A stretch of DNA of 64,000 nt from Novakomyces olei (Eukaryota): contig JADEYG010000009.1 in the NCBI GenBank assembly GCA_016906335.1, positions 558,001 through 622,000 on the forward strand, in the 5' to 3' direction. A program made the translations under genes and the position numbers. The notes beneath the pieces were generated by a model. It was not told the origin of the DNA and ran no database searches. It saw nothing but the letters and a program-made list of their open reading frames with translations. Shown piece after piece: positions 49,965 to 58,097 of the stretch (position 1 is the first letter of the stretch; every line of letters begins with the position of its first letter).

Positions 49965-51149
49965 TTAAGCCTGCTCGTTGGACGCCTCAGCTGAGCGTTT
50001 AGAGATGGGAAGTCCGTACATTGGGATCCAGCGGGCTTCTGCGTCAGCATCGGCCTCAGCATCGGCTGAACGTTTCTTCAAGTTTCCTTCAGAGCGCTTA
50101 GAGATGGGGAGTCCGTACATCGGGATCCATCGGGCTTCTGCGTCAGCATCGGCCTCAGCATCGGCTGAACGTTTCTTCAAGTTTCCTTCAGAGCGCTTAG
50201 AGATGGGGAGTCCGTACATCGGGATCCATCGGGCTTCGGCATCGGCCTCAGCATCGGCCGAGCGTTTTTGCAAACTGCCCTCAGAGCGTTTAGAGATTGG
50301 AAGTCCATACATCGGGATCCATCGGGCTTCGGCATCGGCCTCAGCATCGGCCGAGCGTTTTTGCAAACTGCCCTCAGAGCGTTTAGAGATTGGAAGTCCA
50401 TACATTGGGATCCAACGGGCTTCAGCATCGGCTTCGGCATCGGCCGAGCGTTTTTGCAAACTGCCCTCAGAGCGTTTAGAGATTGGAAGTCCATACATTG
50501 GGATCCAACGGGCTTCAGCATCGGCTTCGGCATCAGCCGAGCGTTTAGAGATTGGAAGCCCATACATCGGGATCCAACGGGCTTCTGCGTCAGCGTCGGC
50601 GTCAGCATCGGCTGAACGTTTTTGCAAATTGCCCTCAGAACGTTTAGAGATTGGAAGTCCATACATTGGGATCCAACGGGCTTCAGCATCGGCATCTGCT
50701 GAACGTTTAGAGATTGGAAGTCCATACATTGGGATCCAACGAGCCTCTGCGTCAGCTTCACGTTTTGAAAGAGCTCCATTGGACAAATCCTCATCGTCTT
50801 CTGGCCAGTAAATGGCAAACTGGTCGTCGTCATTGACTTCAAAGTACGATGTGCCATTTTCAGTTTTGGTGTTCTATTTGTTAGTCCAATAATGACTGAA
50901 CGCTTGGAAAAAAAGCCAAAGCACGAGCCAGATAGGCACACAGACCAAATGTACTGGAACAGATAGGAATAAAACAAATATATAAACGTAAAACAAATAT
51001 ATAAATGTAAAACAATACGTCATTTGTCATTGCCAAAAAAATCAATTCCTTACCACGCCAGAAGTGCCATTGATTGGGGCCGCCAATGACGAGCTCACAG
51101 AGAGCAGGCCAGTCAGGATAGAGAGTGCAACAGGCAGAGAGAGCTTCAT
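49965..51149 (-). CDS. Secreted Kex2-processed repeat precursor, probable alpha-/P-factor-class mating pheromone; exons 51054-51149 and 49965-50873 (334 aa)
   Basis: Signal peptide MKLSLPVALSILTGLLSVSSSLA-AP, pro-region with NGT sites, nine RWIPMYGLPIS copies flanked by KR and preceded by X-Ala dipeptides; intron GTAAGG...CTAAC...TAG keeps the frame. Confidence 0.88.
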
Positions 51150-52893
51150 AGTGCCGAGTGTTGGTGAAGAGAAGGTATAGCGACCGTTAATCCACAAGGG
51201 GACTGCTGAGAGATTGAGGTTAAGAGGTAAAACGAATGTTTAGAACGGATGGATGGGCATTAGAGGCGGCGAGAGTGGAATACTTATAGCAAAATGTCCT
51301 TCAAGGCCGCCCTTGTAAGCCCAAATTGCCCTTGAACTACCTTGAATACAAGAGCAATTGCCCTCTGGCAAGGCCCATATGTATCCCAAAACGGTAATTT
51401 TTGATTTTTTGCTTCATTTATCGTTAATTTTGCTCCAAACTGTAGTTGAAAATGGTAGATACCGAATATTCCCGCTTGTCTATCACCGTTTTATTCACCT
51501 TTTACTCATTTTTTATTCGGCTTTTATTATTCACAGACCTCGAATACTGTCGCTTGCTCAATTGCTCAGCGAATTAGAAGCTTTCACGTAAAGCCGAGGC
51601 CGCCTATCCCTTCATCCCATCCCACGAAGGGTTGGCGTTACAGCCCGAATTGTGCCTTCACACCTTGCTGAAGCCTATAGTCAACGTAATTGCTTGTTTA
51701 TATTGCCTTGCGATAAGAAGTACAAGGCTACCTTGGGTCCTCCGTGCCCATACTCCCTTCGGGTCCTCCTTGAGACACTTTAAAGAGTCCCAACTACCGT
51801 TTCCAGTCGTCCGCTCCGCCCGCAACCAGTCACAGCACCGCGTCGTATAATGCATTGGTTCTCTTTTGGTGTTGGCCCCTTTATTTCGCAGGATTCTGGT
51901 ACGTTAAAGCCCTCAATCATCAAGAAACACACATTTCTTTGCCATTCACACCCAGGCTGCACGATCGCTCTACCTTTGCCCACAATACAATTTCTGTATT
52001 TATGTAAATACAGTATATTGGGAACCCGTACTTGAGCCAACCGTCCAATCTCCTCTCGCCAGTCTCAGCTGATGGCTGAAACGTTTGTCTATCCATACTC
52101 AAGGCCAGTTCTCTGCTTGTACAAGACTCTCTGCGAGCCCGTCAGCTCATTGCCGATTTTGAGGCTGCCGATTCTGAGGCTAATTGGGGGTAAACGCCTT
52201 AATCTCATCAAAGGACTCTATAGCTGAGCAAAGAGCCGTCAGAATCATTGACGAGTATATGGCACACTGTTCCTCTACAAATGCTGCCACGAGCCTTTTA
52301 CTGCGGTCGGCTCTCGTACATTCGTCTCCCGGCAATTCCTCTAATCGCTAATACAACGCGCACATGATACGCGTAAGGCCGTCGCCAATTATCGCCTGAT
52401 CGCGCTACGTCTGGCGCGTTGGTCACGCGGTATTTCGCACTAATTTGGCGTTGATAGATAAAAACGGTTTACTATACAAATGTTTTACTATCAATGTTTT
52501 ACTATATTATATATCTAGTTTTTTTTTCATTTTTTAGCGATATTCGAGTCGGGATTTTCTATTGTCTGCTCGTTTTATTTGTCAAAAAGAATTGAACTGT
52601 TAATAATGCTTACAGTACACAAACGTATATTGCGTATTACTTGTGAAGCGAAGCAAATGTAACAGAAACGCGACTTGGGCTATTACTTGGTGGAAATTTG
52701 CAGAACGAAACTGTACCTCTGTACATTAAATTGGCCAATCACACGCATCCACAAAGCTGATTGTGCCCAATATGGGTTAATCGTAACGAAAACCGATCCT
52801 ATCGTTCCAAAATAGGCTAATCGTTATGAAAGCAGGGAAAACACAGAAATATGAACACGAAAACACGCCCGGCGCGACTTTTTCATATGCTTT

Positions 52894-53086
52894 CACCCGT
52901 TTTCGTGATTAAAATTGAGGGAATTAGAACGTTTCTGTGATCATAGTCCCGTTTTCGGAACAATCCACCCGTTTTCGTGATCAAGGTTGAGGGAATTGGA
53001 ACTTTTCTGTGATCATAGTCCCATTTTTTTGAGCCCTTTTCACGTTTTCGTACCCACAACTGAGGACATTAGAACGTTTCTGTGAT
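52894..53086. repeat. Approx. 72-bp degenerate tandem repeat, 2.5-3 copies
   Basis: CACCCGTTTTCGTGAT...TGAGGGAATT(A/G)GAAC(G/T)TTTCTGTGATCATAGTCCC at 52894, 52966 and about 53040. Confidence 0.85.
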
Positions 53087-54857
53087 TGCTAATTTGCCAA
53101 TGGCCTCATGTCCAGGGTATAAAGCCAGGTGGTTTCGCTCCCCTAGTTCCCCATCCTTCGGGATCCCGAGGTCCGGACGCTATTTCCCGCACTTGTTTGT
53201 TACCTGGTAAATCACCTTTTAGCCGGGGTACGGACTCTGTCCGCTCAAACTTGTGGTTTCAGGGCTTGTTTTCCGCTCGGTAATGGGTGTTTGATACCGG
53301 CGTGGCCTTTCCTCCCTTTTTTTGGAGTCTTTCCAGGTTTTTCGGTGATTTTTTGGCCCTGCATTGACTTTGGAGACGGCACGTTCGGGGCCCCTCTATG
53401 TCTCAGGTCCGGACAAGGACTACCGCTATCGCCCACTGTGGCTTTAGGACTGGGCAGATTTCCGCTAGGCATAGAGGGGTGGCTTTGGGCTAGTTGATTT
53501 GGCATTTGGCAGTTGTATTGCGTTGGAACACGGTTTTCCATGCATTGGCCTAATTTCCATTCCGCTTGTACGGCAAGATCGGGCTTCATCAGCTTCTGTG
53601 CTGTATAGCCAGCTGGGGGGTGCTCTCAAGCATTGATCTTGTTTGTATTAAGTTGGAGCACTATGGATTTGAAAGTTGATCTTGGAGGGACACCGCTGGC
53701 CTAGTGCTCACAGCAGGACCTTACCGCTGGTGGCCCACTCTTATTGTTCTGATTGCTATTTGCACCGTTGTGTGTATTCATTCAATAACAGAGTCACAAC
53801 GTCCACCGGCGCATATGACACGTCAGAGCCTTAGAGATCCCTCTGACCGACACCTCTTATACTGACACGCGGTGAATCTAATTCATCAGTGTCACATGAG
53901 ATGTGCCGGTGAGTGTTGAGATCTTTTTTATGTATATTTCCATAGTTTTGTAGCATACTAGTTAACTGCTTTGAACATTCAAAATCATCCACGTGAGCCC
54001 AATCGGTTGCTTCCAAAATAATTGATTTAATTATCTATTTGTTTTCAAAGCATTCTGAGCTCTAATGAAGTACTTTATGTTTCGCAGTAAAATCGCTCCA
54101 ACTGGCAGAGCCACTGAATGTGGTAAAGCAGCAGGACTTCCAAAAAGCGCATTTTAGGATAACTAGTAACCATATCAAATGATACAGCTTGCTATGGCAA
54201 AGCTGATAATGAATACAGATACATATCTGGTGAAACATGAGTCTGTTATCTCCTCGATATTTCGCTAATAAATTACGATCTTTTTTGCCCACGCTAATCT
54301 AGCCTAAAGTTGATGTACCTCAGTCTAGTTTAATAAACTTATTGTCTAAATCGAGCTGCTAGATCTGCAAGAGAATCAGCATTAATTTTAGTACGTTTGC
54401 TCACTGAATACTGTGTCAATGGGCTTTAGACCACCCATAGAAGGCGACTCTAGAGAGACAAGAACTTTATAAAAAGATCATAATTAATTTTTATTTATAT
54501 CGGGCCAGTCTGTTATCATTTACTAATTTCTACAATATCAGCCTCTATCTAATATTACTTGAGTGCAATATGTCTTTCTGCATAGCGGATAAATGAATAA
54601 ATAATACTCGAACTTGTTGGGTATATTCTTCAAGTATTGCACACAGTACAAGAAATCTCTACAGGCAGAATTCTTTTATCGTTTTCTCATGTGTATTCCT
54701 CACAAGTATCGCCACTACAGAATTACATCAAGTTACACACAAGTCTATTTATCTGCATACAAATACGCAACCATACAAAAATTAAAAAAATTAAAAAGTA
54801 AAAAAATTAAATAATAAAAAAATAAAAAATAAAAACTTTGCATTAGAAACTTTGCGA

Positions 54858-54891
54858 CTGAGGTGAGCTTTATCGGAGCCGTGAGCCTCAG
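54858..54891 (+). promoter_or_regulatory. Canonical kink-turn RNA element in the putative SNU13 5' leader
   Basis: CUGAGG-UGA-GCUU-loop-GAGC-CGU-GAG-CCUCAG gives a C helix, 3-nt bulge CGU, tandem G.A/A.G pairs and a 6-bp NC helix. Confidence 0.75.
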
Positions 54892-54937
54892 GACTGATTA
54901 CGGAATTAACTCATTTCAAAACTTGGCTTGAACGAAA

Positions 54938-57745: not shown

Positions 57746-58097
<352 letters not shown>

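Follow-up and report, generated by a model that had tools for sequence, protein, structure and literature searches.

The Kex2/Kex1/Ste13 pathway is the established processing route for precursors of the alpha-factor type (PMC6339444). Among budding yeasts, the alpha-specific genes of Wickerhamomyces anomalus include STE3, STE13 and MFalpha (10.1101/565234), and in Saccharomyces cerevisiae alpha1 binds cooperatively with Mcm1 (PMC2999568). In Schizosaccharomyces pombe, map2 and map3 (STE3) are core P-specific genes, and Pc, which belongs to the HMG proteins (PMC2999568), is believed to act jointly with Map1, a MADS protein; in the same account P-specific control is "still an enigma", the P-specific cis-element is given as not known, and dipeptidyl peptidase stands outside the P-specific list (PMC1693924). 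Here we analyze a gene in a 64,000-nt stretch of Novakomyces olei (contig JADEYG010000009.1, positions 558,001 to 622,000 of the forward strand; below, the window), which very probably encodes the alpha-class mating pheromone precursor of a Taphrinomycotina-like ascomycete that diverged early. It would be the functional counterpart of MFalpha and of map2 in S. pombe. The precursor is predicted to release nine identical peptides RWIPMYGLPIS, and the upstream region of the gene has a 28-bp element in common with STE3 and with the gene for dipeptidyl peptidase IV (DPP-IV).

Structure of the precursor gene

The gene is located on the minus strand (51149-49965) and is predicted to consist of two exons encoding a product of 334 aa. 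Its features, with window coordinates and the basis of each assignment, are as follows.

51054..51149, minus strand: exon 1, with the ATG, the putative signal peptide (residues ~1–23), the start of the pro-region and an NGT sequon at residue 27 (hydropathy, sequons)
50874..51053, minus strand: predicted 180-nt phase-0 intron, GTAAGG...CTAAC...TAG (sequence signals)
50760..50873, minus strand: acidic pro-region, with the second sequon, NGT at residue 38, and the first KR at its end (sequence)
50709..50741, minus strand: mature peptide copy 1, RWIPMYGLPIS (sequence)
50646..50678, minus strand: mature peptide copy 2 (sequence)
50547..50579, minus strand: mature peptide copy 3 (sequence)
50478..50510, minus strand: mature peptide copy 4 (sequence)
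50385..50417, minus strand: mature peptide copy 5 (sequence)
50292..50324, minus strand: mature peptide copy 6 (sequence)
50199..50231, minus strand: mature peptide copy 7 (sequence)
50100..50132, minus strand: mature peptide copy 8 (sequence)
50001..50033, minus strand: mature peptide copy 9 (sequence)
49965..50000, minus strand: last KR, 9-residue tail SAEAS... and stop codon (sequence)

The 32-codon exon 1 starts at the ATG at 51149 and encodes a hydrophobic core, its residues ending in ...SLA-AP, with hydropathy placing the hydrophobic residues of the putative signal peptide at approximately 3–22. A signal-peptide exon spliced in frame to a pro-region and repeats was already a part of the original prediction, made from the letters alone, and the predicted structure agrees with it: exon 1 (51149-51054) is followed by a phase-0 intron of 180 nt with the GTAAGG donor at 51053, the TAG acceptor at 50874 and CTAAC 11 nt before the acceptor. 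We infer the splice (51053-50874) from these signals; among 16 frame-preserving GT/AG pairs, the one with the junction at 50873 is the sole pair having both a GTAAG donor and a polypyrimidine/CTAAC-TAG acceptor. Exon 2 (50873-49965, 302 codons) continues in frame to a TAA stop, and the acidic pro-region carries two NGT sequons, at residues 27 and 38.

The precursor holds exactly nine copies of RWIPMYGLPIS, all identical and all followed by KR (9/9), and each copy is preceded by an X-Ala spacer of even length, 6–12 residues (9/9), the next pair of residues being Arg-Trp. This bears out the nine KR-(XA)n-RWIPMYGLPIS-KR units described earlier, while a further linker with KR on both sides, SEG[NS]L[QK], present before 6/9 units and varying in its amino acids, had gone unmentioned. 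The nine 33-nt cores constitute five nucleotide haplotypes with six variable sites, all of them third-position and synonymous (6/6), in agreement with the claim of an invariant peptide with synonymous codon variation; the naive chance of this is about 1.6e-4, a value that ignores the non-independence of tandem copies. The six SEG[NS]L[QK]KR linkers (window 50034-50645) are similar to the last residues of the pro-region, SNGALSKR (5/8 identical), and may be relics co-duplicated with the repeat units.

The precursor's Pfam matches, among them SRP72 and TetR_C_12, had no passing stretches and were rejected as repeat artefacts, and its one match in ESM Atlas, at 0.76, is uninformative. Compared with the pro-regions of 15 precursors, the pro-region was not above shuffles in 14 cases and reached 1/500 with P0036.

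Receptor and processing genes

All three enzymes implied by the prepro-alpha-factor architecture that had been proposed, Kex2, Kex1 and Ste13, as well as Ste2, are encoded in the genome. The STE2 homologue, whose look-up had been called for, is a single intact gene of 442 aa (E 2.9e-71), matching Ste2 structures at E 1e-19; P0019, an unnamed Ste2 from the database, is 58% identical to it. One STE3, one Kex2 and a single DPP-IV (STE13-like) gene, the latter with an N-terminal membrane anchor, were also found. The Kex1-like carboxypeptidase has an acidic stretch and a C-terminal membrane segment and is distinct from a carboxypeptidase-Y-like gene also present; the names of the Kex1-like and the Ste13-like gene come from their family and membrane segment and not from an orthology tree. 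The Kex2 frame (L004, G000:C4:933180-936440) has a short Ser/Gly/Phe/Lys repeat run just before the catalytic domain, and the DPP-IV gene (L005/L044, G000:C3:791532 onward) a 9-bp tandem repeat within an intron.

Another gene serving as the pheromone precursor, which the original prediction had named as an argument against itself, was not found in the genome, and the precursor is single-copy. Code for KR-X-A-[DE]-A is matched 50 times genome-wide (control, 29), ten matches being in the precursor and the other 40 isolated. The KR-[DE]A pattern alone proved useless as a screen, with 515 matches vs. 493 in the control. A search of the genome for an a-type pheromone via CVIA-stop yielded eight matches, four of them with the stop, and none was identified as the gene for it. 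Complex prediction for Ste2 residues 1–300 and a stretch of 31 residues that ends in the peptide scored 0.02, which is evidence neither way.

If the established pathway operates here, Kex2 would cut after each KR, Kex1 would trim the C-terminal KR, and DPP-IV would remove X-Ala pairs and stop at Arg-Trp, yielding linear RWIPMYGLPIS with a monoisotopic mass of 1331.71 Da, with short SEG[NS]L(Q) peptides as by-products. The peptide would then activate the single Ste2 of this genome on cells of the opposite type. The predicted precursor combines the features of the alpha class, namely signal peptide and pro-region, Kex2 sites and Ste13-removable spacers, with Kex2, Kex1, Ste13 and Ste2 encoded in the same genome.

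The same proteases could also serve a non-mating Kex2-processed repeat protein (KEP), releasing a linear secreted signal, surface or antimicrobial peptide that is not a Ste2 ligand. Several points favor this and weigh against a pheromone: KEPs with Ste13 signatures are known outside mating, such spacers being present in non-mating KEPs of Basidiomycota (PMC6339444); the precursor exons do not match the Pfam alpha-factor families PF04648 (MF_alpha) and PF05436 (MF_alpha_N); and most protein matches of the precursor owe their score largely to common KR/EA-DA spacers. Still, we consider a non-mating KEP very unlikely, as no KR-XA-[DE]A cluster other than the precursor was found in the genome, whose intact STE2 would be left without a detectable ligand gene, the promoter element common only to STE3 and DPP-IV would stay unexplained, and the peptide fits published alpha-pheromone C-termini. 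The alpha-class pheromone originally proposed appears strengthened by the receptor, the enzymes, the lack of a second precursor and the element in common with STE3 and DPP-IV.

Relatives of the peptide

A protein search with the precursor yielded 18 matches, 12 of them named or Pfam-labelled alpha-pheromone precursors. The best match is Saitoella complicata GAO47114.1 (G7K_1325, "hypothetical protein"; E 3.7e-32), which has eight copies of an 11-mer [RK]WQPYYGEPIM with 7/11 residues identical in register (R-W-x-P-x-Y-G-x-P-I), KR sites with DA/EA spacers, and a similar short tail, EAEAS vs. SAEAS... in the precursor. On the other hand, four core positions differ, SEGxL linkers are absent, the pro-region is shorter and has no significant similarity to that of Novakomyces, and the protein is not annotated as a pheromone; we re-identify it as the likely orthologue of the precursor. 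Saitoella KEPs GAO47788.1 and ODQ55280.1 are given as stand-alone, without a pheromone flag, in Table S2 of PMC7329392, and in their supplement rows two surveys include proteins of this kind from Saitoella in their counts but give them no pheromone label. No report of the window peptide, or of the Saitoella peptide as a pheromone, was found in a literature search whose scope left out the peptide table of PMC6339444 and most subscription papers.

A search for Saitoella synteny via EAF1 returned only three matches, distant and unnamed, and the fragment of ribosomal protein eL20 has its best score with PDB 8esq, which we take to be S. pombe. Because the best relative of the precursor is from Saitoella, eL20 is closest to 8esq and the EAF1 matches are only distant, we infer that the host lineage is early-diverging and Taphrinomycotina-like.

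A profile built from the precursor and the Saitoella protein retrieved 32 representatives, including unnamed P0047 (KWVPMPGEPI) and P0037 (KWWIPYGAPIP), which, along with P0019, point to unsampled relatives. A metagenome scan for W-x-P-x-Y-G-x-P-I-x-K-R code gave 16 matches; all were single, lacked both spacers and repeats, and were judged to be due to chance.

The 11-mer had been regarded as unfamiliar, and this claim needs revision: Saitoella carries a clearly related 11-mer, and YG-x-P-I is a published motif, as alpha-pheromones of Pleosporales end in PYG[L/M]P[I/V]G, called unique to Pleosporales in section 8 of PMC6339444. JGI-named P0002, P0004 and P0007 carry this motif, and YGLPI is present verbatim in RWIPMYGLPIS, while the window peptide has P-M-Y instead of P-Y and a final Ser instead of Gly; the common YGLPI may be either ancestral or convergent. 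Saitoella and Pleosporales-type precursors also have no Pfam alpha-factor match, whereas P0034 passes.

A promoter element common to the precursor, STE3 and DPP-IV

When the 700 bp preceding the precursor gene, STE3 and STE2 were compared, the first of the following two features of the precursor promoter emerged.

51374..51401, minus strand: 28-bp element AAAA-TTACC-N6-GG-x-TACATAT, –252 to –225, a candidate for a composite site of the mating-type P/alpha factor and a MADS protein of Mcm1 type (comparison)
51283..51288, minus strand: TATA-like TATAAG, ~113 bp downstream of the element start (read by hand)

The element matches an inverted stretch at –259 of STE3 in 26/28 positions, ungapped, a level reached by 0/100 shuffles; the best background match is 19/28 in the STE2 upstream region and ≤22/28 across the 89 tiles of the window. 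Two of these 89 tiles matched the STE3 upstream region at 25/28 and 24/28; since the window has just one match to the element itself, they are other sequence, probably AT-rich repeats. A pattern seeded from the precursor and STE3 sites alone has eight genome matches at ≤2 mismatches (control, three), comprising the two seeds, three sites in coding regions, two upstream of unrelated genes, and one upstream of DPP-IV. The latter site extends to 30/33 identity with that of the precursor and is located ~530 bp before the ATG, a distance that suggests either a second promoter or a long 5' leader specific to the cell type; the TATA-like TATATAAG is found 115 bp after it (hand count). The extended pattern has exactly three genome sites (precursor, STE3 and DPP-IV) at ≤3 mismatches and none in the control, although, as it was built from these three sites, the one independent result is that no more matches appeared. 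The shorter element core at ≤1 mismatch gave three exact and seven other matches vs. 15 in controls, and no further regulon members are claimed.

Upstream of STE2 (L001:2413-2459) we observe two GACAATGG boxes (1/200 shuffles), resembling the M-box upstream of S. pombe mfm1 (PMC1693924, Table 3), and there are none of these in 700 bp upstream of the precursor or STE3. CAAGG/CCTTG (window 51199-51772) is present 11 times in 700 bp upstream of the precursor, compared to one in STE3 and three in STE2; its count over the 3-kb precursor locus is reached in 6/200 shuffles, and it may be a second binding site.

Candidate regulators and a candidate mating-type locus

The left part of the element, TTACC-N6-GG, is a degenerate MADS box in its CArG-like form, with a variable spacer, and the right flank, TACATAT, is fixed. 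The genome has three MADS genes, one of them clearly Mcm1-type (G000:C7:2499074; E 1.5e-40 to 1MNM). In the mechanism that we propose, the CC-N6-GG half is occupied by a MADS protein of Mcm1 type and TACATAT by a Pc/alpha1-type mating-type protein, and the two would probably switch on the pheromone, STE3 and DPP-IV together in P/alpha cells. The genes bearing the element (pheromone, STE3 and DPP-IV/STE13-like) correspond, by analogy, to the classic alpha/P-cell set, and, since STE2 is without the element, it would not be a general pheromone-response site.

A possible source of the second protein is the locus on C3 (L064:199-3703, G000:C3:1034198-1037702), comprising a homeodomain gene on the minus strand and, on the plus strand, a multi-exon RhoGAP gene and a weak-HMG gene (at about G000:C3:1037200-1037700). 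The product of the first has a C-terminal KN-type, Pi-like homeodomain, and the candidate Pc falls into generic HMG clusters in ESM Atlas (0.86-0.89). The RhoGAP gene lies between the Pi-like and weak-HMG genes, unlike S. pombe, where the Pc and Pi genes are adjacent. It was considered as rga7, which we take to be a RhoGAP, and, with no F-BAR match in five exon pieces, this assignment is unproven; rga7 itself is a marker of the mating-type (MAT) loci in Taphrinomycotina (PMC4313921, section 5; 10.1101/594028). The C3 locus is a candidate Pi/Pc-like (P-type) MAT locus, in which the Pc and rga7 identities are unproven. Two MATA/Ste11-type HMG genes are situated 100 kb apart elsewhere (L023/L037, G000:C4:1066605-1067746, and L025, C4:1166521); the former adjoins spermidine synthase and a gene for a 40S ribosomal protein, and PMC7912804 describes such a neighborhood as well.

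Several observations weigh against control by such a pair of proteins. The CC-N6-GG spacer is not all A/T, leaving a degenerate MADS site; the alpha-box family PF04769 has no genome-wide match (in a search without a positive control); the putative Pc partner is a weak-HMG open reading frame, identified by its position, whose match to HMG_box has an E of no better than 0.0045; and in vitro Aspergillus fumigatus MAT1-1-1 needs no cofactor to bind the promoters of ppgA and preA (PMC8022922). The same degenerate spacer, the cofactor-free binding, the lack of a clear alpha-box gene and the presence of three MADS genes would fit a pheromone gene whose element is bound by a single other factor, e.g., HMG-type Pc by itself, a different MADS protein or a factor of the pheromone response. 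We regard this as quite possible, though less likely than joint binding, given that the two-part anatomy, with a variable spacer inside CC..GG and a fixed flank, and the gene set both match the Mcm1-alpha1 model, and a pheromone-response factor disagrees with STE2 being without the element. Returning to joint binding, the more specific proposal, that the element is the P-specific site of Taphrinomycotina, recognized by Mcm1 and HMG-like Pc and controlling a three-gene set (pheromone, STE3 and STE13) common with budding yeasts, is possible and is put forward tentatively. No P-specific element in Taphrinomycotina was found reported in the literature, searched without most subscription papers.

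Genomic neighborhood

The neighbors of the precursor are housekeeping genes (EAF1, UreD, RPL20, M20 peptidase, SNU13, MNS1, URA6, TRM112 and DED1). This bears on one more possibility, a precursor of a dikaritin/ustiloxin-type peptide that is made by the ribosome and modified after translation (RiPP), with a Tyr-containing core cyclized by DUF3328 oxidases. The core does have Tyr, required for such cyclization (PMC7329392), but, as had been noted for the adjacent genes, no UstYa/DUF3328 match was found among the 32 window open reading frames scanned, nor genome-wide (without a positive control); with housekeeping genes around it, and with Ste13 spacers not expected in RiPP precursors (PMC6339444), a dikaritin is extremely improbable.

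Upstream of the precursor (window 51150-54900), ~3.7 kb are without a recognizable gene, with two open reading frames that have no Pfam matches and a 72-bp tandem repeat at 52894-53086. A (TAT) microsatellite of ~116 units is located at 57747-58093, and the region 1-6400 is a G-skewed stretch with antisense open reading frames, presumably like those of large-subunit ribosomal DNA. Near-identical urea-carboxylase-like genes are found near two contig ends (L030, C12:1360251, and L031, C13:2373), the C13 copy being apparently frameshifted.

Comparison with known systems

The locus adds a candidate pair of peptide and Ste2 in a basal lineage of ascomycetes, and may provide a new orthogonal peptide-receptor pair useful for yeast biosensors. 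Moreover, the 28-bp site with named candidate binders makes the control of the genes of one mating type testable in the fission-yeast lineage. Lineages without ste2 or Pc have been reported (PMC7912804, PMC4313921, PMC6747714), while both appear to be present here. When the P-specific reading of the element is taken together with the W...YG-x-P-I 11-mer common to Saitoella, an ancestral circuit may be considered: if true, the Mcm1-plus-alpha1/Pc circuit and a short alpha-pheromone would date to the root of Ascomycota, and the P-factor of fission yeast and the cofactor-free mode of Aspergillus would be derived states.

S. pombe map2/P-factor has the same role as the precursor and is probably from the same subphylum; we take the sequence of P-factor to be unrelated to RWIPMYGLPIS. 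It is also about twice as long as the 11-mer, up to 24 aa (PMC6339444). The window precursor differs from MFalpha by the absence of a PF04648/PF05436 match, by the intron after the signal peptide and by a different 11-mer. At the same time, S. cerevisiae MFalpha1/2 and their Saccharomycotina relatives (P0009, P0034 and P0041) have, like the precursor, a signal peptide, a glycosylated pro-region and KR with X-Ala spacers, and the peptides themselves are alike in being linear and repeated, with N-terminal Trp and C-terminal G-x-P-hydrophobic. The promoter element of the precursor may be likened, by analogy, to the co-regulation of MFalpha with STE3 and STE13 in S. cerevisiae and other Saccharomycotina.
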